A stretch of 62,786 nt of DNA, the filler included, from Candidatus Woesearchaeota archaeon (GTDB lineage Archaea; Nanobdellota; Nanobdellia; Woesearchaeales; GCA-2687795): the NCBI GenBank assembly GCA_030753365.1. It is 6 parts of 6 records of this genome, joined end to end, with 100 filler letters (N's around TTAATTAATTAA, not from the genome) between each part and the next. Parts side by side here need not be neighbours in the genome. Positions count along the whole stretch, not along the records: positions 33,905 to 43,391 come from JASMCJ010000016.1; positions 43,492 to 48,762 come from JASMCJ010000019.1; positions 48,863 to 58,250 come from JASMCJ010000021.1; 3 more parts are not named here. One strand, 5' to 3'. Positions 36,059 through 54,562 of the stretch are shown here, piece after piece. The first letter of the stretch is position 1. Each line of letters begins with the position of its first letter. The position numbers were made by a program, and so were the translations under genes. Under the pieces are notes generated by a model that was not told the origin of the DNA, searched no databases, and worked only from the letters and a program-made list of their open reading frames with translations.

Positions 36059-36481
36059 ATGGTAGTCAATACAGACTCGGAGTTGGGATTCAGAGCCATT
36101 GATCTTTTTTGGGAGGTTAACGAAGATAAATTAGTAGGCCTGCCTGAGAGGCTGCAGAGAAAAATTGTTAAGATAAGTCATGGAGAAGAAAGGGAAGTGT
36201 ATACAATTTATCATATCAACGAATATTATCCTAATCTTAATTATGTAGGATTACCTGATGGAAAGCTGACTTTGGGTAGATCAACTCCAGATCCAGAAAC
36301 TGCTAGGTTTAAACCTATTGAAGGATTAATCCCTGTTCCTTGTAGGTCACTTTCCGATATGTATGGTGATGCGGTTGATAGAGGCTATAGACAAAACAAA
36401 GGAACATTTATTGAACATATATATCCTTCTGTAAGAGAAGATTTTCTCAAACAATTAACAAACGAGGTGCAAACAATATGA
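36059..36481 (+). CDS. Hypothetical protein
   Basis: GGAGG upstream; TGA overlaps ATG 36478. Confidence 0.6.
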   Translation: MVVNTDSELGFRAIDLFWEVNEDKLVGLPERLQRKIVKISHGEEREVYTIYHINEYYPNLNYVGLPDGKLTLGRSTPDPETARFKPIEGLIPVPCRSLSDMYGDAVDRGYRQNKGTFIEHIYPSVREDFLKQLTNEVQTI

Positions 36482-36501
36482 AAGAAAAGAAAATATTAAC
36501 A
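36478..36501 (+). pseudogene. Orphan metK 5' fragment (MKEKKILT)
   Basis: Matches met[10 protein letters not shown]; has GAGGTG SD; frame closes after 17 codons. Confidence 0.65.
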
Positions 36502-36593
36502 TATAAAATGATATACTATAAAAAGATTTAAAAATGAGACCTTATCCTTTTTTTAATAAGATTATACATTTCCAATATAATATTAACAATAAT

Positions 36594-37418
36594 ATGAAAA
36601 ATATAATCTCACAATCAAAAAAAGAAAATTATCTATCTTTTATTAAGTCTAATTTTAATAATTTATCTCAAAGAGAGATAGCCAGAAGATTAAATCTCGG
36701 AAAGACAACCATAAACAGATGGGCAGGAGAGGTTGGATTAAGATTCAAAAGACATACAGTTAATGAAGATTTTTTTAATGAGTTTAATGAACAATCATCT
36801 TACATCCTTGGACTTATTTCCTCAGATGGAAATATTTCTTGGAATACTAAAGAAGGTTATTATACTATCACAATTACTGCTTCTGAAAAAGATAAGGAAC
36901 ATCTGGAAAATATTAGAAAGATATTATCAAGTACAAAACCATTAATTTATTCTCTAAAAACTAAATCATATAGATTAATCATAAATAATAAAAATATATG
37001 TAAGAGATTAATGGGGTTAGGTATTACCCCAAGAAAATCATTAACACTAAAATTTCCAGTAATCCCAAAAGAACAACTAAGACATTTTATACGTGGTGTA
37101 ATAGATGGTGATGGCCATGTAAGGTATGTTAAAAGGAAAAAGAGTTCATATTTTGAAATAACAATCTCTTCTGGATCTAAAATATTTTGTGAAGGATTTA
37201 TTAAATCAATAAAAGATTGTATTGGAATAAACACAAATCTCAGAAAAATTGGAGAAAACACATATATCATTCAATATTCATGTTCAAGAGGAGAAAAATT
37301 AGCTGAATTTATTTATTCTAATGCAAATACCTTCTTAGGAAGAAAGTATTTGCCATATAAAAACAATATTTTGGAGGATGAGAAAAATGGTAAAAGAAAA
37401 ACGTCTATTAACAAGTGA
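36594..37418 (+). CDS. Free-standing HTH + double-motif LAGLIDADG endonuclease (start 36534 or 36594)
   Basis: [39 protein letters not shown]; no intein splice motifs. Confidence 0.85.
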
Positions 37419-38556
37419 GAGTGTTACGGAAGGGCACCCAGACAAAATGTCAGATAAAATATCAGATGCATTATTGGATGAGGCAATAAGGCAAGACCCT
37501 ATGTCAAGAGCTGGGATTGAAACTGCAACTAAGAACGGAGGAATAACTGTATTTGGTGAGGTAACAACAAAAGGTTATGTTGATGTGCCTGCTGTTGTAA
37601 GAGAAACAATAAAGAAGATAGGCTACACTAAATCTGACTATGGCATTGAATGGGAAACCTGCAGTGTATGGGTACAGATAACAGAACAAAGTCCTGATAT
37701 TTCACAAGGTGTTAGCGAAGGTAAAGGTCTTCACAAGGAACAGGGCGCTGGTGACCAGGGCATGATGTACGGTTTTGCATGTGATGAAACTCCTGAACTT
37801 ATGCCTATGCCTATAATATATGCTCATAAACTAGTACAGAAGCTTAGTGAGGTAAGAAGAAACAAAGAGATAACATACCTTAGGCCTGATGGAAAATCAC
37901 AAGTTACTGTCGAATACGATGATACTGGAAAGCCTTTAAGGATTGATACAGTTGTAATATCAACACAGCATGATGATGGAATACCCCATGAGGATATAAG
38001 AAAGGACATTATCTCAAAGGTTATAAGACCTATATGCGGTGAATTTATTGACGAAAAAACAATCTTCCATGTTAATCCCACTGGAGCTTTCGTAAGAGGC
38101 GGCCCTTATGCTGACGCTGGTCTTACTGGAAGAAAGATTATTGTTGATACTTATGGTGGCATTGGAAGGCATGGCGGAGGCGCTTTTTCAGGCAAAGATC
38201 CTTCTAAGGTTGACAGGAGCGCAACATATGTTGCAAGGTATATTGCAAAGAATATTGTGGGTGCAGGCCTTGCAAAGAAGTGCGAGGTTCAGCTTGCTTA
38301 TGCTATAGGTGTTGCAGACCCTGTTTCTGTTAATATTGACACTTTCGGCACAAACAAGATTCCTGATGAGAAGATAGTCGAACTTGTGAGAAAGCATTTT
38401 CCTTTAAAGCCTGCAGATATCTTAAAGACATTAGACTTGAGAAGGCCAATTTATGCAAAGACTGCAGCATATGGTCATTTCGGAAGAGATGATCCTGACT
38501 TCACATGGGAAAAGCTTGACAAGGTTGATGTTTTGAAACAGGAAGCAGGGATATAA
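37387..38556 (+). CDS. metK: S-adenosylmethionine synthetase, bacterial type
   Basis: [31 protein letters not shown]. Confidence 0.97.
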
Positions 38557-38641
38557 GCTATCCTTTTCTTTATTTTATTCTTAATATGTAACTATCCTAG
38601 AGGGATGAATATAGAAAGATTTATATGCTGGCCTTTACATA

Positions 38642-39328
38642 ATGTGTGTTATGGAAATGAATAATACACTTTATGAATTACTGAAGGAAGTGTTTGAGAT
38701 TGATGATGATAATAGAGCTAAATCTATCGCTTCTAAACAAGATTCTGATTATTTTGAAAAAAAGTTCAAGAGATTAGAGGGAATTATAGGCGGAGATGCT
38801 GCATATGATATTGTTAGTAACGGAAAATTTGCAGATTATAGAAACGCACATCTTAATGAATATCTTGCCTTAGCTTCAGAAGTAAGTGATATTATAAAAG
38901 AAAGAATGTTCGAACCAAGCTTGAAGCAGGATTGGTTTTATTCTATATTTTATTCTATAGAATCTTTAACGGATTTTATGGTAAATCCAGACTATGGTAA
39001 TAGGAAGAAAGAAATTCTTGATCCAAAGTTGAAGCAGTACCTTTTATTTAATCCATCTAGTGAACAATCTAAAGGATATTTGAATGACTTAATCACAAAT
39101 GGGTCAATAAGGGTTGGTAATCACGAGCATTGGTCTACAAATGGAGCAACTGGTACAAGGGAAAATAATATTCTTAAGAAAATAGGATACGAGTTGAATC
39201 TCGCATTTAATTCTATGAATTATGAAAAGCCAGGTATTCAAATCAATTTTGGTCAGAATACGATAACAATAGACGAAAAAGACCATAAGAATTTAAGGTC
39301 ACTTAGAGATAGAGCTTATAATGGGTAA
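38642..39328 (+). CDS. Hypothetical protein
   Basis: 228-aa ORF. Confidence 0.6.
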   Translation: MCVMEMNNTLYELLKEVFEIDDDNRAKSIASKQDSDYFEKKFKRLEGIIGGDAAYDIVSNGKFADYRNAHLNEYLALASEVSDIIKERMFEPSLKQDWFYSIFYSIESLTDFMVNPDYGNRKKEILDPKLKQYLLFNPSSEQSKGYLNDLITNGSIRVGNHEHWSTNGATGTRENNILKKIGYELNLAFNSMNYEKPGIQINFGQNTITIDEKDHKNLRSLRDRAYNG

Positions 39329-39357
39329 ATTCTGGATTAAGAATATATGGTTCTTTT

Positions 39358-40101
39358 TTATCTTATCTTCACCCTTAACCCAGGATATTCTTTTAAACAG
39401 AATTCTTTAAGGTTTTCTAAAAACTTCTCTGAAGCCGGCTGTATATTCTCCATGTTCTTATCAACCAGTTCTTTTTCATTCTCAAACTGCTGAAGAACCC
39501 ATATACAATTCAATCCATCTATCAACCTTGCTATTTCAAGCAAATCTTCTTTCTTATACACCAAAGAAGGAACTATTACTGTTTTGATTTCTAGTTCAAC
39601 ATTTTCATGATATTTCCTCAACACATTAATGGTTTCTTTTATACCATCCATTATCTCTTCTGTTTTTGTGAAGAATGTTTTTGAATTAGTAACTCTTGAG
39701 AATACATCGTTGCTAAAGGGTGATTTAATATCAAGAGAAATGAAATCCAATAATTCAAGAGAAAGAAGTTCTCTTATTACATTAGGCTTTGAACCATTTG
39801 TGTCAATTCCAACCTTAAGCTCTTTGCTTTTGAAGTGTTTCGCCAGAGTTATTAAAGCCATCCTTTGCAGGCAGGGTTCGCCTCCAGAGAATATCACAGA
39901 TTCTATCATGTCTTCATGCTTTTTTATTTCACTGGTTATTACTTTTAAATCCGTTAAGAATTCCTGCCTGGACTCAAGCATCTCAGGGTTATAACAATAT
40001 CTGCATCTGAAATCACAACCTCCAAAGAAGATTACTGCGCTCAGCTTGCCAAACCATTCTGTTGTTGATAAGGGCACTATCCCGCTTATGAATGCTTGCA
40101 T
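39358..40101 (-). CDS. nrdG: Anaerobic RNR-activating radical SAM protein
   Basis: GCDFRCRYCYN, SGGEP, DTNGS, LDIK. Confidence 0.82.
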   Translation of the reverse strand: MQAFISGIVPLSTTEWFGKLSAVIFFGGCDFRCRYCYNPEMLESRQEFLTDLKVITSEIKKHEDMIESVIFSGGEPCLQRMALITLAKHFKSKELKVGIDTNGSKPNVIRELLSLELLDFISLDIKSPFSNDVFSRVTNSKTFFTKTEEIMDGIKETINVLRKYHENVELEIKTVIVPSLVYKKEDLLEIARLIDGLNCIWVLQQFENEKELVDKNMENIQPASEKFLENLKEFCLKEYPGLRVKIR

Positions 40102-40149
40102 TGGATAATAGAAGGCTATATGAATTATAAAAATGTTTCTTGTGAATGG

Positions 40150-40776
40150 TTACAATTTACTTCCTTCAGTCAAATATACAGACCTTGACATAACTTCCAC
40201 ATAATCTTTAGGCTTTATGCGTGGCTGTTCTGATAAGAAAAGGCCTAAAAAAGATTCAGGAGGTCTGTAGCTTTCAATAACTACTCCTACCCCATAAACA
40301 TACTGAGGTGGAGGAATATCTAATCTCTCATACACATACTTCGCCAAGAATGCTGTTGACAAAATAGCAATTCCAAGAATTAATTTACGAGGAAGATTAT
40401 CAGCTTGCAGCACATCCTTTGTTCGTAATATAAAATAGTGCTTGCATACATCTATTTCGCTTCGAACATCTTTAAAAAAATCAACAACCTTATCAACTTT
40501 TTCTTTCCTTGCTCTTATTTTATATTCTTCTAATAATTCTTTATGTGCTTGGTATGATTTCCAGACTGAAGTTCTTACTTCACTATGTATCTTATCACCC
40601 ATACTATTTAAGATACGAGTTAATTCTAAATCATCAATTTCAGAACCATAGTCCTTAAGAACATCATCTACGGTTCCCTCATCAAAAAGAGGTTTTCCTC
40701 TGATTTCTGTGGCAAGTATTTCCTTAACTTCATCCTCTGTAAAGTAATCCTCAAAATCATTATCTTTTCTTTCCAT
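40150..40776 (-). CDS. Hypothetical membrane protein
   Basis: One TM segment. Confidence 0.55.
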   Translation of the reverse strand: MERKDNDFEDYFTEDEVKEILATEIRGKPLFDEGTVDDVLKDYGSEIDDLELTRILNSMGDKIHSEVRTSVWKSYQAHKELLEEYKIRARKEKVDKVVDFFKDVRSEIDVCKHYFILRTKDVLQADNLPRKLILGIAILSTAFLAKYVYERLDIPPPQYVYGVGVVIESYRPPESFLGLFLSEQPRIKPKDYVEVMSRSVYLTEGSKL

Positions 40777-40942
40777 TCTTAAATAAAATAGAGATTTTTA
40801 TTTAAATCTTTTTGCAATAACAACTTTAAGGTAGTGCATACAAACCAAATACCCTTCAATCTATCCCAGTATACAAAAACATAACATTTATATATTAGCC
40901 AATAGTCTAATTTTATTAAAATAAAACCAAGAGGTGGAAAAC

Positions 40943-42007
40943 ATGGATCTAATTGTTGAAAATGCATTAAAAAATTCTGATACTGATTTTAATACAGACG
41001 GTTTAGAAATAGGCAAGGCAAATATCAAAGTTATGGGTGTAGGCGGAGCCGGAAATAATATGGTTAACTGGCTTTACAAAAAGGGAATTAGAGGTGCAGA
41101 AATTCTTGCTTGTAACACAGACAAGCAACATATAGATTCTACTGAAGCAGACAAAAAGTTCCTTCTCGGAGCAAATCTAACAAGAGGTCTTGGCTGCGGA
41201 GGTTATCCAGCTAAAGGTTCTGAAGCTGCAAAGGAAACTATCCAGGAAATTAAAGAATCTCTAAAAGGCGCTGACATGATTTTTGTCTGCGCAGGCATGG
41301 GAGGCGGCACAGGCACAGGAGCTGCCCCAATTATAGCAAAGGTTGCTAAAGAAGCTGGCTCTATTGTTATTGGTACTGTTACTATGCCTTTCAATATAGA
41401 ACGGGCAAGGATTGACAAGGCAGAGTTTGGATTACAGCAGTTAAGGGATGTTAGTGACACTGTTATAGTCATAGATAATAATAGATTGGTTAACATTGCA
41501 GGCAATCTTCCTGTTAAGCAGGCTTTTGCTGTTGCAAACGAATTGATTGCTACTATGATAAGAGGCATTGTTGAAACAATCTCTGTTCCATCATTGGTTA
41601 ACCTTGATTTTGCTGATGTTAAAGCTATCATGAACAGTGGAGGAGTTGCTGCAATAGGTATAGGCTCTTCCGACACAGCTAATAGGGTTGAAGAAGCCGC
41701 TAAGAGCGCATTATCAAATCCTTTACTGGATATTAAATATGAAGGTGCTGACGGCGCATTGATTCACATAGAAGGTGGTCCTGAAATGACTCTGGACGAT
41801 GTCAGCAAAGTGGGAGAGATTATCACTGAGAGTCTTGACTCTACTGCAAACGTTATTTGGGGCGCAAGAGTCAGTGAAGAGATGAAAGGCAAGCTTTGTC
41901 TTATGGTCATTATCACAGGTGTTAACTCCCCCTGGATTCTGGGAAAGAAGGATGAAGTACAAGCAAGCAAAGAAATGAGTGATGATTTAGGAATATCAAC
42001 CATTTAA
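40943..42007 (+). CDS. ftsZ: Cell division protein FtsZ
   Basis: GVGGAGNN, GMGGGTGTG, NLDFADV. Confidence 0.97.
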   Translation: MDLIVENALKNSDTDFNTDGLEIGKANIKVMGVGGAGNNMVNWLYKKGIRGAEILACNTDKQHIDSTEADKKFLLGANLTRGLGCGGYPAKGSEAAKETIQEIKESLKGADMIFVCAGMGGGTGTGAAPIIAKVAKEAGSIVIGTVTMPFNIERARIDKAEFGLQQLRDVSDTVIVIDNNRLVNIAGNLPVKQAFAVANELIATMIRGIVETISVPSLVNLDFADVKAIMNSGGVAAIGIGSSDTANRVEEAAKSALSNPLLDIKYEGADGALIHIEGGPEMTLDDVSKVGEIITESLDSTANVIWGARVSEEMKGKLCLMVIITGVNSPWILGKKDEVQASKEMSDDLGISTI

Positions 42008-43384
42008 TTTTTTTATCCTTGCCCCTGTATCAGAATCTTCAACACCAAACCCTTTTTTCTTTATTTCTTCTCTTATTTTGTCAGCTTTATCCCAGTCTTT
42101 CTCTTTTCTTGCTTTCTCTCTTTGTCCAACCAATTTTTTTATACCTTCAGGAACTTTTTCATCCTGCTTGAGAATTCCTAGCACTTTATCAAAACCTTTC
42201 ATTAAAGCAATAACTTCCTTTGCATCACTTTTGCTTATGTTTTCTTTATTAATATCTCTTACAAAGTCAAACACACTCGCTAATGCTTCAGGAATTCCTA
42301 TATCATTGTCCATTGCTGATTCAAACCTCTCCTTCGCTTTTTTAATAAGCACATCAACTTTTTTATTATTTTCTTTCCTTTTAACATTCTTAAGATTGAA
42401 CACAAAGTCATTTATTCTGGTAACAGAGTTCTTTGCTGCTTCTAAACAATCTAACGTAAAGTTAAGCCTCTGCCTGTAATGCGTGCTCATAAGAAGGTAT
42501 CTTACAGCCACTGAACTATAGCCTTTTTCTAACAAATCCCTTAAAGTATAGAAATTGTTGAGAGACTTGCTCATCTTCTTTCCTTCTACTAATAGCCATT
42601 CATTATGTATCCAATAATTTACAAACTTCTTGCCTGTTGCAGCCCCTGACTGCGCTATTTCATTCTGATGATGCGGGAACACTAAGTCAACCCCCCCTGT
42701 ATGTATGTCAAAATTATTTCCAAGATACTTCATTGACATTGCAGAACATTCTATGTGCCAGCCAGGCCTTCCTTTTCCTGCTTCAATCTTCCAGAATACG
42801 TCTCCATCTTCCTTGTCCCAAGCTTTCCATAATGCAAAGTCATTCAATTGTCCTTTCTCATATTCATCCTGTTTTACTCTTGCTCCTGCTTTGAGTTCAT
42901 CAATTTTAAGATTTGCAAGTTTCCCATAACTCTTAAACTTAGAAATATCATAGTATATTGAGCCATCTTCACTTTTATATGCAATCCCTTTTTTATCCAG
43001 CTTACTGATTAATTCAGCCATTTCTTTAATATGTTCTGTTGCCTTTGGAAATACATCAGCTGGCTCTATGTTTAATGCTTTCAAATCTTCAAAGAAGGCT
43101 TTTGTATATTTGTCTGTAAACTTTTTCAAAGAAACTCCTTGTTTCCTGCTTCCTTTAATGGTCTTGTCATCTACATCTGTAATGTTCATCACATGTTTTA
43201 CTTTATAGTTCTTATATTCAAAATACCTTCTTAGAATGTCTGCGCAGATATAAGCCCTGAAATTTCCTATATGCGCATAGTCATACACTGTAGGGCCGCA
43301 TGTATACATACTAACATAATCAACCTTAATAGGCTTGAATGTTTCAGTTTTCCTTGTTAGTGTATTGTATAGTTTTAAGGTCAT
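41996..43384 (-). CDS. cysS: Cysteine--tRNA ligase
   Basis: CGPTVY, HIGN, GRPGWHIECS, KMSKS. Confidence 0.97.
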   Translation of the reverse strand: MTLKLYNTLTRKTETFKPIKVDYVSMYTCGPTVYDYAHIGNFRAYICADILRRYFEYKNYKVKHVMNITDVDDKTIKGSRKQGVSLKKFTDKYTKAFFEDLKALNIEPADVFPKATEHIKEMAELISKLDKKGIAYKSEDGSIYYDISKFKSYGKLANLKIDELKAGARVKQDEYEKGQLNDFALWKAWDKEDGDVFWKIEAGKGRPGWHIECSAMSMKYLGNNFDIHTGGVDLVFPHHQNEIAQSGAATGKKFVNYWIHNEWLLVEGKKMSKSLNNFYTLRDLLEKGYSSVAVRYLLMSTHYRQRLNFTLDCLEAAKNSVTRINDFVFNLKNVKRKENNKKVDVLIKKAKERFESAMDNDIGIPEALASVFDFVRDINKENISKSDAKEVIALMKGFDKVLGILKQDEKVPEGIKKLVGQREKARKEKDWDKADKIREEIKKKGFGVEDSDTGARIKKLNG

Positions 43385-43391
43385 CTTTAAT

Positions 43392-43491
43392 NNNNNNNNN
43401 NNNNNNNNNNNNNNNNNNNNNNNNNNNNNNNNNNNTTAATTAATTAANNNNNNNNNNNNNNNNNNNNNNNNNNNNNNNNNNNNNNNNNNNN
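43392..43491. other. Artificial contig linker
   Basis: N-run with TTAATTAATTAA. Confidence 0.98.
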
Positions 43492-44861
43492 TAAATAGCT
43501 GTTGTAAGTTCTTCTCTCATTGAGCCAAGCCTTTGTAGATTTTCTTCGTGTTTTTCGTATAACGCATCATCACTATATTCACTATAATATGTAAGATGGT
43601 CATCAACCTTTTCTTCAGTATAAGGAAGAAGTTGTCTTAGTTCCAGTTGTTTCTCTCTAGGATTTCTCACTCTTACAGAAGGATTTTCTAGTGAATTTTT
43701 CAAACTTTCAAGCCTGTCCACTTCATCAGAATAAAAGTCCACAAGCCTTACGAATTCAGCATACATTTTACCTTCTTTGGTATGTTTCTTAATAATATTA
43801 GCTACTCCTTGACCTACATTATACAACAATCCATTTCTAGGAGTTTCTTCTATTGATTCAACACTTTCTTCAGGTTGTTCTTCATAAACAAGATTATCTT
43901 CTAGTTCTGATGTTTCCCTTGGTTCTCTTCGGAATACTTCAGTCAACCTATTATAAACACTAGCTACTCCTTGGCCTACATTATACAATAACCCGTTTCC
44001 AGACTCTTCTTCTGTTGATTCAACACTTTCTTCAGGTTGTTCATAAACAGGATTATCTTCTGTTAATGTCTCTACCATAGTACCAAGTTCTTCTTCATTA
44101 GGCTCTTCATCATCTCCAAGGTCTTCTAACCCAGAATTATCATCCTCTGGAACTTCATAGTCTAGTATATCATCAATTTCTTCATGTGAAAATCCAGTTG
44201 TTTCTTCATCAGATACCTGCTCTTCAGCCTGATAAGGGGCTTCTTCTAGTTCTCTATAAGTTTCAGAGATATCAGATTTAAGTTCACTAATAACATTTTC
44301 CATTTGTTCTATTGGATTTAACTTTCTATTAACATCCTTTTCTTCTAATTCTTTATAAGTCTCAGATATGTCAGATTTAAGTTCACTGACAATGCTTTCC
44401 ATCTGTTCTAACAAGTTTGGTCCTTTATTATAATCACTTGCTTCTTTAGTATTATCAATTACGTTTAACACAGCGCTTTCCAGCTGTTCATATTCTTCAT
44501 TTGGTTCTTGATTTTCTACATTTAGTTCAACTGATTCTCCAGTCAATAATTGTCCAACTTCTTTTTCTGTGATTTTCGTTTCTGATTTTTCTTCAGAGTC
44601 TAAGTTAAGATAAACAGAAGCTTCGTCTTCTTCAACACTATCTTCTAATCCAAAAGGATTATCATCAGAAGCTAGTAACTTATCTATCTCTTCTGGTGAA
44701 AGCATTAATTCTTCAGCTTGATAAGGAGCTTCTTCATCTTTTCTAGTTATACCATAAGTATCCTTACTTTTAGCAGAACTAATCCTTGATTCCCTTAATT
44801 CAATAGCTCTTGCAAGTAGTCCTTTACCTTTTGATTTCGCTTTTTCGGTTAGATTTTCCAT
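43492..44861 (-). CDS. Highly acidic protein with internal duplications (3' end at contig edge)
   Basis: EEAPYQAEE x2, QME..SELKSDISETY.ELEE x2, EQPEESVES..NGLLYNVGQGVA x2. Confidence 0.7.
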
Positions 44862-44947
44862 TTTGATGATAACTGTTATTTATCACTTAATAGTGATACA
44901 TCTATATATAAACCTTTCGGTTTTAAAGCTTTAAAAATGATAGAAAA

Positions 44948-45502: not shown

Positions 45503-45865
45503 CTAAACTAATGCCTTTAATTTTGATTCTATATCCTCAAGTTCACTCTCTAACAGATCAAACTGATTTGTCTTCCTTACTTCTACAACCGATTTAACTC
45601 CTGGAGAAGCCTTAACAGCATTTCTCCTAATAACAACCTTAACCTTTGGCAGCTCCAGCCTAAGCTGCGAATTCAATTTTGCCAGTTCTAAAAGAATATC
45701 CTTAAGCTGCATTATAGTTTTTATCTTTTCTTCTCTTATTCTCTTAATCTGTTCATGCTTTTGCAACAGAGAAATAATGTCTTTCAGGCACTCCAGAATG
45801 TTCCTTCTAAATTGATCACTATCCCTTATCCTTATATAACTAAATTCATCTCCTTCAGTTCCCAT
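45503..45865 (-). CDS. Coiled-coil hypothetical protein
   Basis: YIRI.D...RR.ILE; last of three coupled coiled-coil genes. Confidence 0.7.
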   Translation of the reverse strand: MGTEGDEFSYIRIRDSDQFRRNILECLKDIISLLQKHEQIKRIREEKIKTIMQLKDILLELAKLNSQLRLELPKVKVVIRRNAVKASPGVKSVVEVRKTNQFDLLESELEDIESKLKALV

Positions 45866-45875
45866 TTTCCAATAA

Positions 45876-46118
45876 TTAGCCTTCCTGTTCAAACAAAGCC
45901 TTATCTATCAGTTCTATCTTTCTTTCCACTTCTTCAAGCGTAGAACTCCACTTGTCAATTTCTGTATCCTCTTCTATTTTTAGAGTAGAAATATGACTCA
46001 AAGTAGCTCTTGCCTGATTAAGCTTCTTTTTAGCCACATTCATTAAATTTTGTATATCTTCATATTCATCTATTCTCACAAACATTGGTGTTCTGCCATC
46101 CATTTCATTCACCTTCAC
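45876..46118 (-). CDS. Small coiled-coil protein
   Basis: PMFVRIDEY...W...LEEVERKI..IDK.LFE. Confidence 0.75.
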   Translation of the reverse strand: MKVNEMDGRTPMFVRIDEYEDIQNLMNVAKKKLNQARATLSHISTLKIEEDTEIDKWSSTLEEVERKIELIDKALFEQEG

Positions 46119-46876
46119 TTTTCATACAATATCTTATCAACATATATCAATTTCCTTTGCATATCTTCAAGGCTTGTTCTCCATCTCTCAAACTCTTTAT
46201 CCTTGCTATTTTTTATATTATTAAGATTTAAAACCAAATCCTCTGACTGTTTAAGTTTATCTTTAATAATCGATATTCCTTCAAGTATAGACCTATAAGA
46301 ATCCTGTTTTACAAACAAAGGCCCACTAACCTTCCTTTCAGCAACATCCTCTTCCCTTCTCAAAGGTGGAACAAACGGTTTATGCTCCTCTTCCTCATGA
46401 ACAGGCATAGGCATATGCTCTTTAGGCATTGTATGCTTAGGTGCTGTGAATAGCCCATGTTTTCTTTCAACCGTATGATGTGGTGCCATTCTATGTCCTA
46501 TAGGATGAACAGGCCTAGGACGATGAGCCATTGGCACATGCCTTTCTTCATGTTCAGTATCAGGCATTGCTGGAAACTGTTGAGCTTCAAACTTAGAAGG
46601 TGCTGGAGGATGTCTCAATCCATGTGGATAAGGTGGTAGAACATGAGGCTGTCCAACTCCTGGATGCACTGGAGCTCCTGTAGGTTCCTTATGCATTTCT
46701 CTATGCTTTGGAACTATCGGCTCTAAAGGCGGCAATGGAGGCAAACCTTCTCTTACCTTTTTCTCTTTCTTCTTATCCTTCTTCTTCAAAACAGATTTAG
46801 GTGGAAGTGGTGGAGGCGGCGGCATATCTAAAGCCTCTCCTCCCTCTTTTTTCTTAAACAATTTTAAAAATCCCAT
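46115..46876 (-). CDS. Pro/His-rich protein with C-terminal coiled coil paralogous to 45876..46118
   Basis: PLFVKQDSY...W..SLEDMQRKL..VDK.LYE. Confidence 0.75.
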   Translation of the reverse strand: MGFLKLFKKKEGGEALDMPPPPPLPPKSVLKKKDKKKEKKVREGLPPLPPLEPIVPKHREMHKEPTGAPVHPGVGQPHVLPPYPHGLRHPPAPSKFEAQQFPAMPDTEHEERHVPMAHRPRPVHPIGHRMAPHHTVERKHGLFTAPKHTMPKEHMPMPVHEEEEHKPFVPPLRREEDVAERKVSGPLFVKQDSYRSILEGISIIKDKLKQSEDLVLNLNNIKNSKDKEFERWRTSLEDMQRKLIYVDKILYEK

Positions 46877-46960
46877 TAAATACCCCTATAATTAACAATA
46901 TACCAACCTCTGTATATTATAAACTTTATGTAGCATTTCAAAATAGTAACAGAAATAAAA

Positions 46961-47301
46961 TGTAGGGCAAGAATAAGCCACCTTCTGTCAGGCCCTTTTG
47001 TGTAACATTAAGTTACGATAGCCTGCCTTAGCATTTAACTAAGCGTTTGACATAACAATGCCTTCAACTTGCACAAACCAGGTCCCATGTTTCATCCTTT
47101 CATGCTAAAACGTCAGTTGGTTAACTCACCCAAGTCACCTCAGGCTTCGCAACATCATCCTGTTAACATGTGGTTTATTTTCTGAATGGGTTGCCATCCG
47201 TTTCCGGATCTCTCTTCCAAGAGTGGCAATTTTTCAGTCAAATTGACTGTGTGGGTGGACTTTCCTCACATTAGATGCGAAAGCTAAGTACTTACCCTAC
47301 A
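46961..47301 (-). ncRNA. rnpB: Archaeal RNase P RNA
   Basis: GAGGAAAGTCCACC and ACAGAAGGTGGCTT forming P4; terminal helix TGTAGGGTAAG/CTTGCCCTACA. Confidence 0.9.
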
Positions 47302-47353
47302 TTATAGAAAAAAGAGTGTTTTGTTTATAAAGGTTACTGGTTTTTAAGAAATC

Positions 47354-48094
47354 TTACTCATTCTCAACCCTTGGAGCAAGCACAAAAGCCAGCTGTAGTT
47401 TGTCAACAACTGTATACTCAAGCTTCAAAGGATAATCCTTATCAAACTGCATTGTAACTTCACTTGCAAGCTTAGAAGCAGGAATCATCTTCTTAAGATA
47501 TTCTATAGAATATTTCGCTTTTACATTATCAGCAGTTGATGTTATCTTCGTTTCATCACTCTCCTGAACCTCTATCTTTGCCTGGCTAAGGTCACCTTCT
47601 GCAAGAATAGTAAACTTTTTTGCTTCTGCCTGGAACATCACTGACTCTGCAACAATATCAACATCTTCGATAGTATCATTAAGAAGGGCTGATGTTGTCT
47701 TTATACTTATTGGGAACTTTAGTTCAGGCACTTTCTGTTCTTTTTCTTCCAAATCAATGATAGGCAATGAGAATGTTCTTGTGGTATTGCTCTTCAACTG
47801 AATCTTAAGCTTATTTTCTTCTAATTCAAGAGTCAATATATCTTCAGGCTTTGCTCTTCTAAGAATTTGCTTAAAGTTACTCAAATTTATTGCCATGTCA
47901 ATCTCTTTATCAACATTATATTCTGTAAAGCTTGAAGATAATAATTTAAATATAACCATTGCCACATTTGCAGGGTCCATTGCAACCAATTCTATTGCAT
48001 CTGGAGTTACCTTAAACCTTGCTTCATTCACTAAATCAGAAATGATTGATATGCTCTCTTTTAAGTATCTTGGTTCCGCTAGAGAAAGTTTCAT
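47354..48094 (-). CDS. pcn: PCNA sliding clamp
   Basis: AMDPANVAMV, KYSIEYL, DYPL, LAPRVE. Confidence 0.96.
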   Translation of the reverse strand: MKLSLAEPRYLKESISIISDLVNEARFKVTPDAIELVAMDPANVAMVIFKLLSSSFTEYNVDKEIDMAINLSNFKQILRRAKPEDILTLELEENKLKIQLKSNTTRTFSLPIIDLEEKEQKVPELKFPISIKTTSALLNDTIEDVDIVAESVMFQAEAKKFTILAEGDLSQAKIEVQESDETKITSTADNVKAKYSIEYLKKMIPASKLASEVTMQFDKDYPLKLEYTVVDKLQLAFVLAPRVENE

Positions 48095-48246
48095 TTTTTA
48101 AACCTCAAAAACTAAACCAACTAATTTGCTGGTTTTTGTAAGTTTCATTTTTTACCCCTTTAGAAAAGGTAAATTCAACATATATTTAAAGGCTTCGATT
48201 TGATTTTGATAAAAACCTTTATAAAAACCTACACTAATTCTAACCT

Positions 48247-48762
48247 ATGGCAGACAATATTATAATATTTTGCGCGCATAACGATGACAACCTCTTAGGA
48301 GTAGGTGGCACTATTGCAAGATATGCAAGCGAAGGCATGAACATTGTTACAGTTATTTTCTCTTATGGCGAGAGCAGCCATCCCTGGCTTAAAGCAAAAG
48401 TTACTCAGGATATGAGAAAAAAGGAATGCGAGGAAGCTAATAAAGTCATTGGAGGCAATGATATTATTTATTTTGGGCTTAAAGACTCAAAGCTTGAGGA
48501 AGAGGTTACTAAGAACAAAACTAAGATTGAAAACAAGATAAAAGAGATACTAGATAAGTTCAAGCCAAGAAAAATCTTTACTCATGCTTTCAGCGATCCT
48601 CATCCAGACCACAAAGCTGTCACTAATGTCTTACTAACTGTATTAGACAAGAAATCTATGAACTACGATGTATATTCCTACTGTGTATGGGATCCAATTG
48701 AAATGGACAAGAACAAGTTTCCTAATCTTGTTGTTGATATAAGCAAACATTACGGCACTAAG
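48247..48762 (+). CDS. PIG-L/LmbE-family deacetylase (3' truncated)
   Basis: AHNDD...GGT; DPHPDH. Confidence 0.88.
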
Positions 48763-48862
48763 NNNNNNNNNNNNNNNNNNNNNNNNNNNNNNNNNNNNNN
48801 NNNNNNTTAATTAATTAANNNNNNNNNNNNNNNNNNNNNNNNNNNNNNNNNNNNNNNNNNNN
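48763..48862. other. Artificial contig linker
   Basis: N-run with TTAATTAATTAA. Confidence 0.98.
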
Positions 48863-48940
48863 AAGCGTTGGAAAATAGTGAATGGAAAAAAGAGGCAATA
48901 AAAGAAGCGTTCTCGTTATTAAAAAAGTAAAAAAGAATAA

Positions 48941-49516
48941 TTATGATCTTTGTCTAATGTCGTACATGATTTCTTCTAGTTTCTTTAGATTCCATTTAAT
49001 TGAATCGCTTTTTCTTCTTAACTGGCTATTCCGAAGATTAAACTTAAGGAATTCGCCATAGATTTCTTCTACTGTGTCTTTGATGAGTTCTACTTCTTTG
49101 AATTGTCTTTTTGTTGCAAGGGAGACTGCTCTTCTTCCAAGTTCCCCTGTTAGGTCGCATAGGCCTAGAAGGTAGTCTTCGCTGTTTACTCCCAATGTTT
49201 TCTTTGATGGCAGTTTCTTGTGCATAACAAAGTAGTAATAACTGAAGGCTTCTGCATATTCCTGCAAGGCGCTGGAGTATGATGGCTCTGCGCTGAGCTC
49301 TTTTGTTTTTTTTGCAGTTTTGTCTAGTTTGAACTTTGCAGCTTTGATTTGTTTTAGAAGACCTTTTGTTTCTCCTAGGTTATCCCTATGCACTGAGTAG
49401 ATCATGCATTTTGAGAGTTTTAGCAAGGCTCTGCCTTCATTAATTAGCACTTCTCTTTGCTTGTCATAGGTTTCAAGCTCTTTTCTGATTTTTGTGAATT
49501 CTTTTTTGTTTATCAT
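48941..49516 (-). CDS. Translin/Trax (C3PO-like) protein
   Basis: QEYAEA; DYLLGLCDLTGELGR; LRRK.D. Confidence 0.85.
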   Translation of the reverse strand: MINKKEFTKIRKELETYDKQREVLINEGRALLKLSKCMIYSVHRDNLGETKGLLKQIKAAKFKLDKTAKKTKELSAEPSYSSALQEYAEAFSYYYFVMHKKLPSKKTLGVNSEDYLLGLCDLTGELGRRAVSLATKRQFKEVELIKDTVEEIYGEFLKFNLRNSQLRRKSDSIKWNLKKLEEIMYDIRQRS

Positions 49517-49522
49517 TTTAGA

Positions 49523-51043
49523 TTAGACCATCTTACTGTTTCTTAAAAAGTCAAGCTCTTGTGAGAAGAGCTGCCTTATATCTTTTATGCCTAGGTTGAA
49601 CATGCCGATTCTGTCAATTCCTATGCCCCAAGCTAGGACTGGAACGTCTATGTCTAAAGGTTTGCACATTTCAGGCCGAAAGATGCCTGCTCCAGCTAGT
49701 TCTATCCAGCCAAGGTCTGGATGTTTTGCGTGTAGTTCTGCTGAAGGTTCTGTGAATGGAAAGTAAGCAGGGACTATCTTGATTTTGTCTGTTTGACAGA
49801 ATTCTTCTGCAAACATTTTTAGCACACCTTTGAGATGCCTGAAGTTTAGGCCTTCTTCTACTATGATGCCTTCTGTTTGGTAGAAGTCTACAAGGTGAGT
49901 TGCGTCTATTACGTCTGAACGAAAGCATCTTACCATTCCAAAGTATTTGCCAGGGATTTCAAGCTTTTCTGAGGCTAGCATTCTTGCTGAGCAGGCTGTT
50001 CCCTGGGTTCTTAATAGATGCCTATGAGTTCTTTTGGTATCGAATTTGTAGCCCCAGCCTGTTGAGCCGGTTTTGAAGCCGGTTTCATGGGCTTCTTTGA
50101 CTTTTTTTACAAGACGCTCGTCAAGTTCTCCATATCTTGGCTCTTTGACATAGTAAGCGTCATGGATGTCTCTTGCAGAATGGAATTGGGGCATGAATAA
50201 TGAGTCCATGTTCCAGAAGTCTGTTTCTACAACTGGACCTGTCATTTCCTTGAAGCCAAGGGACATGAACTTTCTTCTTACCAAATCCTGGAATTTTCTG
50301 TATGGTTGTTTCTTGCCAGGGTATTCTTTGGGAACATTGATTTTTATGTCATATGCTCTGAATTGCTTATCTTTCCATGAGCCTGTTTTTAACATTGAGG
50401 TTGTGAGTCTGTCTACGATGTTTTCTGCGGTTAGGTCTTCTTCTAATAGTTCTTTGCCTAGAGGTGTGAGAAGGGCTTTTTTTAGCTTAACTACCTGAAC
50501 TTTTATTATGTCTTTTCTTTTCTTTAGGTTGTTTAATGCAAAAACTTCTTCTTCTTTGAGAGATTTTATGTCAAGAGGGAATGTTTTGGTTATGAATTCT
50601 TCTTCAAGGAAGCCTTTTTCAAGAAGGCTTTTGCCATGCTTGGTTATTGCAACCATTAGCTCTGTGCCTTCTTTTTTTATGTCTATGGCTGCTTTGCTTC
50701 TTAGGATGCCAAGGCATGAGCTTAGTTCTTCTTTTGAGAGGTTTGCTTTTGTTCCTATTTCGGTTAATGAGGTTTTGGTGTCAATGTGAGAAAGGAATCG
50801 TTTCTCAGGCAGACCTGCCTGAAGGTATTTTTTGCCGTTGTCTTCCAGACTGGCCATTTCTTTGAGTTCCTGGCTTATTTTTAAGATGTTTTTGTTTTCC
50901 AGCCATTGGAATGCCCGCATGACTTCTATTTCGTCTAGACCTGTTTCTTTGCTGAGGTCTTTTGTGTTGTCAAACTTGTCTAATAGAGGCAGTACTTTTC
51001 TTTCAAATTTGTGTAGTGTGTTGATTAGAGCTGTATTGTCCAT
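49523..51043 (-). CDS. pheS: Phenylalanine--tRNA ligase alpha subunit, archaeal long form
   Basis: WNMDSLFMPQFHSARD, YFPFTEPS, GAGIFRPE. Confidence 0.96.
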   Translation of the reverse strand: MDNTALINTLHKFERKVLPLLDKFDNTKDLSKETGLDEIEVMRAFQWLENKNILKISQELKEMASLEDNGKKYLQAGLPEKRFLSHIDTKTSLTEIGTKANLSKEELSSCLGILRSKAAIDIKKEGTELMVAITKHGKSLLEKGFLEEEFITKTFPLDIKSLKEEEVFALNNLKKRKDIIKVQVVKLKKALLTPLGKELLEEDLTAENIVDRLTTSMLKTGSWKDKQFRAYDIKINVPKEYPGKKQPYRKFQDLVRRKFMSLGFKEMTGPVVETDFWNMDSLFMPQFHSARDIHDAYYVKEPRYGELDERLVKKVKEAHETGFKTGSTGWGYKFDTKRTHRHLLRTQGTACSARMLASEKLEIPGKYFGMVRCFRSDVIDATHLVDFYQTEGIIVEEGLNFRHLKGVLKMFAEEFCQTDKIKIVPAYFPFTEPSAELHAKHPDLGWIELAGAGIFRPEMCKPLDIDVPVLAWGIGIDRIGMFNLGIKDIRQLFSQELDFLRNSKMV

Positions 51044-51191
51044 GTTAAGAGTAGAAAGAAGTTAGAAGTTTTAAAAGCTTTTGGTATTGGATAAGTAAGA
51101 ATGCTTTTTTTGGAATATATTTTGGAAACTACAAATACTTATAATGTTATTGTTATTCTATTAAAGATTAAAAATATTAGGAGGAATTTAA

Positions 51192-51898
51192 ATGAAAGGA
51201 AAAGTATTGATACCATTTGTAATATATGTAATGGGGATTGGGATTGTTAGTGTAACAGGTAATGAAATTAAACTTGTGTCAGAAGATGAACATAAGGCAA
51301 CTGAGCAGATGTCAAGAGTTTCTGAGGATTCAAGAACAGAATTTTCAGGAACTAAAGATGGTTATTCTTGGAAATTTATTGATTTTGGCAGGGAAGGAAA
51401 ATTGGATCTAGTTGAAGAGGGTTATGGACCTGGAAGAACTAATTCATTTGAAATGCCATATATTCTTCAATCACAACAAACTTTTTTTGATAGTGGTAAG
51501 GCAGGTGTTATAGATTATGTGGCAGACAATATTACAGATATTGTAACTGCTGATCCTTCCTCAATAACAACTTACCAATCTCCTAGGAACTCGAATAAAT
51601 CTTTCAAGATGGTGGTGCAAGGACCAAAAAGGTTAACTATACTTTAATAGGTACTCTTAAAGAAACAAATCCAGAGGATGGTAATGGAAGCTTTAGACAA
51701 GGGATATCTCTGCATTCCATTATTCCTCCTAATCGCAGTGGTTCAGAAAATCCTTTAAATGATTTTGAGATACTTATTGATATAACAAGGATAACTAAAG
51801 GACCGTCATATGATGGACTAAGAGAAATTGTGGAGTTTGTTAGGGATGAATATGAAGGAAATATTCCTACATGGGAAACTATTCTAAGAAAAGAATAA
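51192..51898 (+). pseudogene. Secreted hypothetical protein with a frameshift near 51597-51645
   Basis: Signal peptide; -1 frame open from about 51599 to TAA 51898 without its own ATG. Confidence 0.55.
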
Positions 51899-51980
51899 TT
51901 AATTGATTCTTTTTTATTTTTAGTTAAATCTAGCTGGAAAACAAAAATCTTTATAAGCTATTGATTAATACTTTGAATAT

Positions 51981-53387
51981 ATGAAAGAGAAGCTAGAGAA
52001 ACTAAACGATTACGAATGGTTGTTGCCGAAAACAGCAAGAAAAGAGATGAAGGTAGATGCAAAAATAATTGCTAATAAAACTATATTAGATGCTATTGAA
52101 GATGATGCTGTAGAGCAATTAACAAATGTGGCAACGTTGCCTGGTGTAATAGAGCCAGTTATAGGTATGAGCGATATGCATTGGGGCTACGGCTTGCCAA
52201 TGGGGGCTGTTATGGCATTTGATAAGGAAGATGGGTTCATAAGCAGCGGTTGCACTGGCTTCGACATAAACTGTGGAATTAACTCAATAAGAACCAATTT
52301 AAGCTATAATGAAGTTAAAGATAAGTTAAAAGAATTAATTTCTGAATTGTTCAAAACTATTCCCTGCGGTGTTGGTTCTAAAGGTAAATTGAGATTAACT
52401 AATGACCAGTTAGATGAAGTTATGGTAAAGGGGGTAAACTGGGCTGTTAAGAACAATTATGGAGTTAAAGATGATATTAAAAATATGGAAGAAAATGGAT
52501 GTATGGAAGGCGCTGACCCAAACAAGGTTTCTGATTTAGCCAAGAAAAGGGGAGTTCCTCAGCTAGGAACGCTTGGTGCTGGAAATCATTTCTTGGAGAT
52601 ACAGAAAGTCTCAGAAATATTTGATAAAGAATATGCAAATAAATTAGGTATTAACAATCAAGATCAGGTTTTAATTATGTTACATTGCGGTTCAAGGGGT
52701 TTTGGGCATCAGGTTGCATCAGATTATCTGAAAATCCATGAAAAGGCTGTTGATAAGTATAATATTAAATTGCCTGACAAACAGTTAGTTGGAGCTCCTG
52801 CTAACTCTGAAGAAGGGCAGGATTATCTTAAAGCTATGAAATGCGCTGTTAATTACAGTTTTACAAACAGGCTTGTTATGACGCAATGGATAAGGGAAAC
52901 TTTTGAGAAGGTTTTTGGAAAGAGCTGGGAGGATATGGATATGCATACTGTTTATTCTATTGCTCATAATATAACTAAAATAGAAAAACATAAAGTCGAA
53001 GGCAAAGAAAAAGAGATTTATATAACCAGGAAAGGAGCAACAAGAGCATTTCCTGATATTCCTGCTTTAATTGCTGGAACTATGGGTACTGCTTCTTTTA
53101 TATGCAAAGGAACAGAAATAGCAATGGAGAAAACATTTGGCAGCACAGTACATGGAGCTGGAAGGGCGATGTCAAGGCACGCTGCTATAGATAAGTTCTG
53201 GGGCGGAGATGTCAAAAAGGAACTGGCAGAAAGAGGAATAATCGCTCAATCAACACATCCTAAAGTATTAGCTGAGGAAAGCCCTCAAGCTTACAAAAAC
53301 GTGATTGACGTAGTAGAAAGTGTACATAATGCTGGGATTTCACCTAAAGTAGTTAAATTAACTCCTATGGGAGTTTGTAAAGGTTAG
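51981..53387 (+). CDS. rtcB: RNA-splicing ligase RtcB
   Basis: DMHWGYG, GFDINCG, GNHF, HCGSRG, AHN, HGAGR. Confidence 0.96.
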   Translation: MKEKLEKLNDYEWLLPKTARKEMKVDAKIIANKTILDAIEDDAVEQLTNVATLPGVIEPVIGMSDMHWGYGLPMGAVMAFDKEDGFISSGCTGFDINCGINSIRTNLSYNEVKDKLKELISELFKTIPCGVGSKGKLRLTNDQLDEVMVKGVNWAVKNNYGVKDDIKNMEENGCMEGADPNKVSDLAKKRGVPQLGTLGAGNHFLEIQKVSEIFDKEYANKLGINNQDQVLIMLHCGSRGFGHQVASDYLKIHEKAVDKYNIKLPDKQLVGAPANSEEGQDYLKAMKCAVNYSFTNRLVMTQWIRETFEKVFGKSWEDMDMHTVYSIAHNITKIEKHKVEGKEKEIYITRKGATRAFPDIPALIAGTMGTASFICKGTEIAMEKTFGSTVHGAGRAMSRHAAIDKFWGGDVKKELAERGIIAQSTHPKVLAEESPQAYKNVIDVVESVHNAGISPKVVKLTPMGVCKG

Positions 53388-54293
53388 TGTTTCCTTCATT
53401 GATTTATTTAGTAAATTATTTTCCAACATTTTCCTTACAGATTCTACTTCTTGTATATTAAGTTCATAATACACGGTGCCATGTCCATTTACACAGCGAT
53501 ATATTTTAGACTTAATCTTAAACAAATCATATAGATGCTTTGATAATTTCTTTAGATTATCTTCTTTTATAGAATTAAAGCGAACATAGATTGGCTTACC
53601 CCTACACAACTTAGGTTTTGCTTTTTTCTTTAACATATGTTCTATAAAATTCTTTAATTTGATTGGGCCTTCTGGAAATTTCCAAGTGTAATCAACATAA
53701 GAATTAACAATCTTAGGTAATTTCTTTCTTTTTTCACTATGGAGGAAGCCTATTTCTTTATGGAATTTGGTAAGGTCATCTTTTCCATATATTCCTAAGT
53801 AAGATATATTTCTTCCGTTTCGTTTCTTTACAATTGAATCTATGCCAAAAACCGCTTTTAGTAGACTCCGTATTTGTAATAACCCTTTATGGTTAAGGGA
53901 ATGTACTCCGATTGTTCTAGTTTGGTGAGGTCTAAATTGGAGCCAGCCTTCTGAATCAAAAAATGCTCTTAACCATAAACTTAAACCTTGTTTATCTAAA
54001 AATTCTATGGGAATTTCCCAATTTTCTGTATAATAAGGCTCATATTTCATTAATTTTTCATAGATTTTATTTTGGGTGCCAGAGTAACAATACAATATTT
54101 TTTTGTTTTTTACTTTTTTGATTGTTATTTTATGATTTATATCGCATAGCCTTTCAAATCTCTTCTTAAAATCTTTAACAAGAGTTAGATTTGTGTTACT
54201 AAACCTTATGCACACTTCTTTATCCCTTCCACTAATATACCCATCTCCACAAAGATATCCGTGAATTGCTGCCAAATTTTGATTAATTTTCAT
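53358..54293 (-). CDS. Free-standing LAGLIDADG endonuclease with an extra C-terminal domain
   Basis: IHGYLCGDG; WLRAFFDSEG; IGF...K...L; no intein motifs. Confidence 0.85.
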   Translation of the reverse strand: MKINQNLAAIHGYLCGDGYISGRDKEVCIRFSNTNLTLVKDFKKRFERLCDINHKITIKKVKNKKILYCYSGTQNKIYEKLMKYEPYYTENWEIPIEFLDKQGLSLWLRAFFDSEGWLQFRPHQTRTIGVHSLNHKGLLQIRSLLKAVFGIDSIVKKRNGRNISYLGIYGKDDLTKFHKEIGFLHSEKRKKLPKIVNSYVDYTWKFPEGPIKLKNFIEHMLKKKAKPKLCRGKPIYVRFNSIKEDNLKKLSKHLYDLFKIKSKIYRCVNGHGTVYYELNIQEVESVRKMLENNLLNKSMKETLTFTNSHRS

Positions 54294-54431
54294 TTCAAAT
54301 CATCAATTTTTTCCTTAAGCTGAAGCTATGTAAATGATTTTTGTATATGATACTGAAAATCATAATTTGATAGTTGAAGCATTCTTTGAGTAATTTGAAA
54401 TAAAGAAAGGATTATCATTTAAATATCTCAC

Positions 54432-54535
54432 GGGGGCACCTGACCAGTGACCAGTGGAAACAGGAAATGCAGAACTTCTAGGCTAGAAGCTCCATATCAA
54501 TAAAAACCACTGGACATTTAAAGTTGACCAGTGGC
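54432..54535. repeat. CCAGTGG motif cluster, ORB-like
   Basis: TGACCAGTG at 54441, 54448 and 54525; inverted CCACTGG at 54507; one reads CCAGTGGAAAC. Confidence 0.55.
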
Positions 54536-54538
54536 TAG

Positions 54539-54562
54539 CCTATGGGCGTCATGAAGGGTTGA
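54539..54562 (+). pseudogene. Orphan rtcB 3' fragment (PMGVMKG*)
   Basis: Matches the rtcB end PMGVCKG*, mostly synonymous differences. Confidence 0.75.

Follow-up and report, generated by a model that had tools for sequence, protein, structure and literature searches.

The stretch of DNA analysed here (the window, 62,786 bases) consists of six contigs of one genome, that of a Candidatus Woesearchaeota archaeon (G000), joined by runs of N, and it carries two free-standing LAGLIDADG homing endonuclease genes (HEGs), one (HEG1) running into the 5' end of metK and the other (HEG2) into the 3' end of rtcB. At both loci the 3' end of the HEG is fused to, and co-encodes, a working end of the host gene, so that the latter stays intact without an intron or an intein. 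The best explanation for these arrangements, which we regard as likely, is that they are HEGs that occupy gene ends, carry a fused replacement terminus, spread by homing and co-conversion, and leave the recipient's own terminus behind as an orphan. Their sequences indicate that two unrelated LAGLIDADG lineages are involved, each specialised on one housekeeping gene: HEG1 on metK and HEG2 on rtcB. In what follows, G001 is a congener of the source genome, other G numbers are genomes of relatives, and L numbers are loci or contigs; the relatives surveyed were the 401 genomes of the order (400 besides G000), together with a phylum-level sample of 401.

The metK locus lies on contig C16 (window positions 33905-43391), with all its features on the forward strand. 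The gene itself (37387..38556) is uninterrupted and encodes an intact bacterial-type S-adenosylmethionine synthetase of 389 amino acids (aa; PF00438, PF02772, PF02773), 89% identical in aa to that of G001; its ATG at 37387 follows a GGAGG ribosome-binding site (RBS) at 37374-37378. HEG1 (36534..37418) encodes 294 aa that match PF14528 (E 7.6e-13) and the PDB entry 2dch_X (E 5.5e-7), and the C-terminal part of its reading frame ends 32 nucleotides (nt) inside metK. The segment 37374..37418 is used twice, since the stretch that forms the RBS and first 10 codons of metK also encodes the final 14 codons of HEG1 and its stop. On the far side of HEG1, beginning 56 nt upstream of it, lies a displaced metK 5' terminus (ATGAAAGAAAAGAAAATATTAACA, 36478-36501) that reads MKEKKILT, compared with MVKEKRLLT at the functional start. 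This orphan heads an upstream open reading frame (uORF) of 17 codons in total (36478..36531), whose TAA stands 2 nt before the HEG1 ATG, and its start codon overlaps (ATGA) the stop of a 149-aa open reading frame (ORF; 36032..36481) of unassigned family, which has no Pfam match and no homologue in 40 relatives. This arrangement suggests that translation of HEG1 is probably driven by the uORF headed by the orphan start codon.

The rtcB locus lies on a separate contig, C21 (48863-58250). The RNA ligase gene (51981..53387, forward strand) encodes an intact protein of 468 aa (PF01139, E 4.9e-155) ending in PMGVCKG. HEG2 (53358..54293, reverse strand) encodes 311 aa that match PF14528 (E 2.4e-22) and PF03161, with the motifs ..YLCGDGY.. 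and ..FFDSEGW.. in its translation, and its final 10 codons run antisense to the stop of rtcB and the nine codons before it, an overlap of 30 nt. The region upstream of HEG2 (54294..54536) contains a TATA-like box (TTTAAATA, around 54421) oriented away from HEG2 and repeated (G/T)(A/T)CCAGTG motifs (around 54442-54457, 54507-54518 and 54525-54536); it is shared with HEG2-family loci elsewhere, the same motifs being present in L114, L115 and L121, and an Rfam scan of it gave no match. It is followed by the displaced native rtcB 3' terminus (54537..54562, forward strand; ..PMGVMKG and TGA), in which the orphan proper, CCTATGGGCGTCATGAAGGGTTGA (54539-54562), comes directly after an in-frame TAG, 245 nt beyond the HEG2 start, and is separated by 8 nt from the end of a convergent cation/H+ exchanger gene. 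The two ends thus read PMGVCKG plus stop in the functional gene versus PMGVMKG plus stop in the orphan. The positions of the ORFs, overlaps, orphans and repeats given by a first-pass annotation of this DNA were confirmed at both loci. One contig that is otherwise 99.9% identical (L147) lacks one G of the GGG at window position 54074, which shifts the HEG2 frame near residue 74; either the population contains a decaying variant of HEG2, or the missing base is a homopolymer error.

The first reading of both as free-standing LAGLIDADG genes is borne out by Pfam, by the alignment to 2dch and by inspection of the motifs, of which each protein has two. LAGLIDADG_3 (PF14528) matches both HEGs, and PF05204 and PF03161 match too. 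The double motif of HEG1 (..LGLISSDGN.. / ..RGVIDGDGH.., each with an Asp) aligns to both motifs of 2dch, a solved archaeal-type homing endonuclease; the acidic residues of such motifs are catalytic. Neither gene is encoded by an intein or an intron: they are separate ORFs, HEG2 lies on the strand opposite to rtcB, and both host genes are uninterrupted in G000. HEG1 and HEG2 are probably active endonucleases. They show no detectable sequence relation to each other (E 0.7).

The distribution of the two families matches their specialisation on one gene each. Close homologues of HEG1 (49-66% identity) were found in 7 of the 400 other genomes of the order, in all seven directly upstream of metK and on the same strand, and the phylum-level sample added three more, all beside metK and all from the same order. 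HEG1 relatives are therefore 5' of metK in 10/10 bearing genomes besides G000. In every HEG1 locus displayed, the HEG frame reads through the GGAGG of metK. The 'stops inside' column of our homologue table concerns frames that are open over 270-342 aa and whose best alignments are free of stops, so that we do not count these homologues as decayed, although the column had first suggested pseudogenes. Decayed remnants exist in G024 and G008, where only the last ~126 nt of the HEG are kept upstream of metK. The carriers represent 10 families besides that of G000. Pairwise identity averages 61% for HEG1 versus 65% for MetK, and the two are uncorrelated (r = 0.08, 15 pairs), MetK being much more constrained. 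Close homologues of HEG2 (37-48% identity) occur in 13 of the 400 genomes and flank rtcB in all 13 (12/12 without the unpublished G315). Unexpectedly, it is the 5' end of rtcB that these 13 occupy. Five are divergent from the gene and eight share its strand, and in six of the latter the RBS and start of rtcB lie within the HEG frame, the arrangement seen for HEG1 at metK. The design of G000 is found again in L142 (from G596), with a HEG 52% identical to HEG2, convergent with rtcB and overlapping it by 30 nt, and an rtcB end in GVCKG; the metagenome contig L148 has the same gene order as G000 and L142. G001 has neither element, at metK or at rtcB. The view that each family is bound to its own host gene while being patchy among genomes is upheld by these counts.

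The junctions are real. Misassembly, which had been named among the possible refutations, is excluded because independent assemblies bridge them. The 1,301-nt stretch from the orphan through HEG1 into metK is present in 20 sequencing runs from 16 studies. The stretch from rtcB through HEG2 and the orphan to the exchanger is bridged by contigs from two further studies, which show 3 and 0 differences (one of them, the near-identical 8,332-nt X4, may share its source with this DNA), a third run bridges the orphan side, and two metagenome contigs are 99.9% identical. The runs containing the sequence are marine, seawater and hydrothermal-vent metagenomes, with no RNA run among those listed. To assess the likeness of the terminus copies we relied on peptide-level and cross-genome tests, because ungapped 24-mer shuffle scans have low power for AT-rich fragments of 24 nt and only the orphan of G218, described below, is clear by them. 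None of 3,263 sampled ATG-initiated peptides of G000 (out of 22,841) scores as well against the MetK N-terminus as the metK orphan does, with 8 ATGs in the far region of the locus; none of 8,535 sampled 7-mers preceding a stop scores as high as the rtcB orphan, with 34 stops in its far region. In the comparison across genomes, 24/26 nt of the rtcB orphan are shared with the 3' end of the G001 gene (blastn E 6.7e-5). The exact 8-bp direct repeats reported earlier are present at both loci, TATTAACA at 36494 and 37406 (912 bp apart) and CCTATGGG at 53364 and 54539 (1175 bp apart). Their status as insertion junctions was not borne out: at rtcB the likeness to G001 already begins 2 nt to the left of the CCTATGGG repeat, and the most fitting reading is that each repeat consists of conserved homologous codons shared by the two terminus copies, rather than being a target-site duplication.

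The clearest case for replacement is rtcB. A HEG-less allele had been predicted to carry the orphan type of terminus, and G001, which has no HEG and keeps the synteny of pheS and rtcB, ends its rtcB with PMGVMKG and TGA. We examined the rtcB termini of 30 loci of relatives, of which 21 could be read (including G000 and one false match that was dropped) and nine could not. The HEG-less termini read GV[L/I/M/V]KG in 19/19 cases and GVCKG in 0/19, and the GVCKG end is present in both distinct HEG-bearing alleles whose terminus was read (G000 and L142). The flanks of the G000 locus resemble those of the congener: the pheS product is 82% identical to that of G001 and 45% to that of G596, and the exchanger is 74% identical in aa to the G001 copy, which shares a contig with G001 rtcB, and 49% to that of G596. 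Between them, rtcB is 71% identical to G001 and 78% to G596. In the rtcB tree, G000 groups with the alleles of G596 and L148, which have the HEG at the 3' end (support 100/99), and G001 is placed elsewhere; in sliding windows the excess of identity to G596 is largest in the C-terminal third (78-83%, versus 56-71% for G001). Tree, flank identities and window profile agree with co-conversion. Since the flanks are G001-like while rtcB groups with distant HEG-bearing alleles, most or all of the present rtcB apparently came in with HEG2, and the 26-nt orphan would be the remnant of the native gene. The terminus replacement originally proposed therefore holds in that the orphan is the native end, and falls short in that the replacement apparently extended to most or all of rtcB. 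At this locus recoding could plausibly confer immunity: 7-8 of the 16 nt after CCTATGGG differ between the copies, and the downstream flank has been replaced. Single-crossover (Campbell-type) integration at the 8-bp repeat was also considered for this locus and ruled out, as the gene body to the left of the repeat is not G001-like.

Displaced termini recur, as anticipated. Besides the one at rtcB of G000, clear orphans were found in 3/11 HEG1 loci (G000, G218 and G538). In G218 the orphan (MAKITYFTSE, versus MTKISYFTSE at the functional start) stands behind the native operator and promoter and matches at 20/24 nt, a value reached by 0/100 shuffles. In G538 the orphan (MKDYRFTSESV, versus MLKDYEFTSESV at the functional start) is fused in frame to the HEG. 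Judged by eye, each orphan is closer to the metK N-terminus of its own genome than to those of other families, which argues for separate and fairly recent events between related donors and recipients, and not for one ancient duplication. For G000 itself we do not choose between two readings: in the first, the orphan is the native end, and the element imported a G001-like terminus from a related donor; in the second, it was the orphan, together with the 149-aa ORF, that came with the element.

The HEG-less metK alleles share a conserved palindrome, ATATTC-N6-GAATAT, about 10 nt before a TATA box that lies about 45 nt before the start, in many genomes of the order (for example in L022, around 1390-1440, from G001; L027, from G019; and L032, from G010). 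The metK of G000 is without it. The palindrome is likely an operator, with its regulator unassigned. The metK of G001 has the usual operator and a TATA box ~45 nt before the ATG, like the other HEG-less alleles, and this standard spacing of operator, TATA box and leader rules out that its leader is the remnant of a deleted HEG (GCCAGATAA versus CCATATAAA).

The relatives of HEG2 bear on the idea that these elements live independently of splicing. It holds in G000, with a qualification from the relatives: 5 of 15 5'-type HEG2 loci have an intron in rtcB, as compared with 0/28 HEG-less relatives with an uninterrupted match. This intron is a frame-breaking insert of 29-36 nt at the H-x-G-Y|G active-site codons (around residue 70), and it folds as a bulge-helix-bulge (BHB) motif. 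Such inserts were located in L113 (1439-1472, G336), L116 (reverse strand, 2615-2642, G161), L117 (2534-2566, G197), L115 (2704-2740, G256) and L149 (3622-3655), and probably in L123 (G295). In L116 the rtcB frame is restored if 29 nt are excised by cuts placed behind the second base of each 3-nt bulge. The insert would be a messenger RNA intron in the gene of the very ligase that seals such introns, and it may also shield the site from the neighbouring endonuclease. The rtcB of G596 (L142, 3563-6466, reverse strand) contains an intein of about 500 aa, with a LAGLIDADG domain, after GFDINC, and is triply occupied, with this intein inside, a free-standing HEG at the 3' end and a cassette at the 5' end.

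These elements suggest the following course of events. A HEG would cut a HEG-less allele near the gene end, and the break would be repaired from the occupied allele, with the HEG and the adjoining host sequence being copied by co-conversion. Where the far flank offers no homology, the recipient's own terminus would be left as an orphan. At metK the element would then use the host transcription unit: the old start codon would initiate and pass translation on to HEG1, in G000 by coupling to the upstream ORF and in G538 by fusion in frame, and metK would be re-initiated from the RBS inside the HEG. HEG2 would import its own upstream region, with the outward TATA-like box and the CCAGTG repeats, as is common to the 5'-type elements.

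A number of observations weigh against homing with a fused replacement terminus as the origin of these loci. First, orphans are present in a minority of the HEG1 loci (the three of 11), no clear orphan was found in L142, and a scan of the 5'-type HEG2 loci, feasible for 13 of the 14 attempted, gave none, one weak A-rich match (p ~0.01) being taken as chance. Second, the HEG-less metK allele had been expected to be of the orphan type, and the prediction failed: in G001 metK the RBS and the first 14 codons are of the functional type and agree with G000 at 55/55 nt, beyond which identity drops to ~78%. Third, the conserved metK codons beside the junction (10 residues) are intact in the occupied allele, so that the immunity through recoding claimed for these elements is not evident at metK. 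Fourth, within G000 the best ungapped 24-mers of the two copies match at 17/24 for metK (shuffle p ~0.07) and at 16/24 for rtcB (p ~0.26), neither being significant. Fifth, an empty-site allele of the same species was not seen; that no contig joint skips HEG2 carries no weight here, since contigs drop rare variants. Sixth, on contig C16 of G596, archease and rtcB are separated by a 1.1-kb cassette that has no HEG and lies on the opposite strand, and the 3' end of archease is present on both sides of this cassette as a direct repeat of 90 nt with 93% identity (L157, 327-416 and 1517-1606). The content of this cassette is a nucleotidyltransferase gene (PF18765, PF01909) and a 136-aa ORF.

Because this HEG-less cassette has a duplicated archease end, terminus duplication is not specific to HEGs and is a broader scar of cassette insertion in these genomes, so that a HEG is not required to explain every instance. 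An alternative built on this point is that cassette capture at gene ends is general in compact genomes, for example through short terminal homology with foreign segments, with HEGs as passengers or occasional drivers and the duplications as scars. Besides the G596 cassette, it is favoured by the neighbours of metK, which differ between G000 and G001 on both sides (neither flank is syntenic), and by an extra 850-bp stretch upstream of rtcB in G000. This stretch, which appears as a blastn gap without counterpart in G001, lies between pheS and rtcB and contains a 151-aa ORF (51192..51647, forward strand) with no Pfam match and no match in G001, G010 or G596; it may have been acquired together with rtcB. 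General cassette capture leaves unexplained why the HEGs are so faithful to one gene (metK in 10/10 genomes plus two remnants, rtcB in 13/13), and why the HEG frame and the host terminus are fused in the same manner in distant genomes. We consider it improbable as the full account.

A second alternative, which we find very hard to sustain, is that the HEGs are domesticated, vertically inherited DNA-binding regulators of metK and rtcB, of WhiA-like or maturase-like type, and that the terminal fragments are irrelevant. It would account for the constant position beside one gene, for the CCAGTG repeats conserved upstream of HEG2-family genes, for the weak helix-turn-helix matches of HEG1, which are N-terminal and below the Pfam cut-offs, and for the fact that HEG2 relatives adjoin rtcB genes in need of RNA splicing. 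WhiA-like regulators are vertically inherited and near-universal in their clade, with degenerate motifs and a C-terminal helix-turn-helix. The first-pass annotation had asked whether the two proteins group with them, and they do not have these properties: close HEG1 copies are present in 7 of the 400 other genomes of the order, scattered over different families, the acidic motif residues are kept, the weak helix-turn-helix is at the other end of the protein, and there are decayed copies in G024 and G008 as well as the 1-nt frameshift of HEG2 in the 99.9% identical contig. A regulator inherited with its gene also sits poorly with an rtcB allele that is discordant and linked to the HEG, and with the uncorrelated divergence of HEG and metK. 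Lastly, chance likeness of short AT-rich fragments, or a chimeric assembly, might be invoked on account of the non-significant nucleotide shuffles in G000 and of a genome in 78 contigs, and is next to impossible given the peptide-level tests, the agreement of the rtcB orphan with G001 at 24/26 nt, the orphans in the corresponding position of G218 and G538, and the contigs of other studies that span the junctions.

The right flank of the rtcB locus is a Na+/H+ exchanger gene with a TrkA-N domain (54571..56286, reverse strand; Pfam), syntenic with G001. In G001 the interval between rtcB and the exchanger (L145, 2030-4883) holds two genes for transporters, one an amino-acid permease with a fused methyltransferase and the other a Na+/Ca2+ exchanger, both missing from the corresponding interval of G000 (window 54563-54570). 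The genome of G000 has 896,806 bp in 78 contigs, is 94.5% complete and has ~35% G+C; its small size, its composition and its nearest records (metagenome-assembled genomes labelled 'Nanoarchaeota archaeon' and 'Aenigmatarchaeota') fit the DPANN label. Within these 0.9 Mb there are 12 LAGLIDADG loci, five in frames of 660-982 aa that are intein-like and seven free-standing, one of which is broken by a TAG. Those outside the window include C47 1599-2399, C75 2594-3298, C71 4900-5727, C61 19121-20317 and C28 20250-21028. Downstream of the C47 gene lies a tRNA-like cluster (around 640-1600, reverse strand) that is apparently multiply interrupted, and the inverted repeats at this cluster (..GTCAGAATTTTCC.. 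/ ..GGAAAATTCTGA..) recur beside a HEG2-family gene in L125.

According to the usual view, a HEG can be tolerated within an essential gene of a cellular genome only if an intron or an intein houses it. The two unrelated LAGLIDADG lineages described here would have reached the same alternative, which is to occupy a gene end and co-encode its replacement. If the enzymes are active, they would be a driver of horizontal exchange of core-gene alleles in ultrasmall archaea and a source of new, naturally paired sets of endonucleases and targets. They also call for caution with phylogenies built on rtcB or metK, and the proposal is directly testable with synthetic genes and substrates. We are much more hesitant about a wider reading, in which the free-standing LAGLIDADG HEGs of DPANN represent a third, splice-free route of invasion of essential chromosomal genes, beside introns and inteins, that moves whole housekeeping alleles (here rtcB) between distantly related lineages, complemented by an archaeal case of 'collaborative homing' of 5'-type HEG2 and the BHB intron, in which the messenger RNA of an RNA ligase would itself need ligation; this is a tentative suggestion, and one that may well prove wrong.

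Titles and abstract openings from the literature, with incomplete coverage, yielded neither a terminus replacement by a free-standing LAGLIDADG gene in archaea or DPANN nor a BHB intron in rtcB. Several known systems share parts of the design. Archaeal LAGLIDADG enzymes are known from introns of rRNA and tRNA genes and from inteins (I-DmoI, I-PorI, PI-PfuI), and RtcB is a known intein host. HEG1 and HEG2 resemble these enzymes in family and in the architecture of a double-motif monomer, and differ from them in being separate ORFs outside splicing elements, HEG2 even being antisense to rtcB. Integrative elements of tRNA genes insert at the 3' end of the gene and carry a replacement 3' end, with the displaced end remaining as a direct repeat on the far side. 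They are alike in that a functional copy of the gene end is supplied and the displaced one is kept on the far side; however, they use a site-specific integrase and an exact attachment core, whereas here there is no integrase and the copies have diverged.

Second in closeness is the intronless homing of the Seg and Mob endonucleases of phage T4, which cut HEG-less genomes near the insertion site and co-convert the flanks (PMC2790892, PMC2330249, PMC2988022). They are likewise free-standing and located between genes or at gene ends, but they are GIY-YIG or HNH enzymes of phage genomes and are not known to come with a displaced host terminus or a fused replacement terminus. The closest precedents are in fungal mitochondria, where free-standing HEGs at gene ends are associated with alternative or duplicated termini, as in atp6 and cox2 of Phlebia radiata and in the duplications of the atp9 N-terminus with GIY-YIG genes (PMC4019555, PMC7487136), as well as in atp6 of Allomyces macrogynus (as cited in PMC4019555). 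As far as the available parts of these sources go, they share with our loci a free-standing HEG at a gene end, a second and sometimes foreign terminus in frame, and the other copy left behind. The fungal cases are organellar and concern mostly C-termini, whereas the present ones are on an archaeal chromosome and affect both a 5' and a 3' terminus; and, unlike in the fungal cases as presented there, the HEG frame here co-encodes the RBS and start of the host gene or is antisense to its last codons, the families recur in many genomes, and one whole allele has been replaced. The feature is real and recurrent, and it is a variant of the known systems of HEGs at gene ends.

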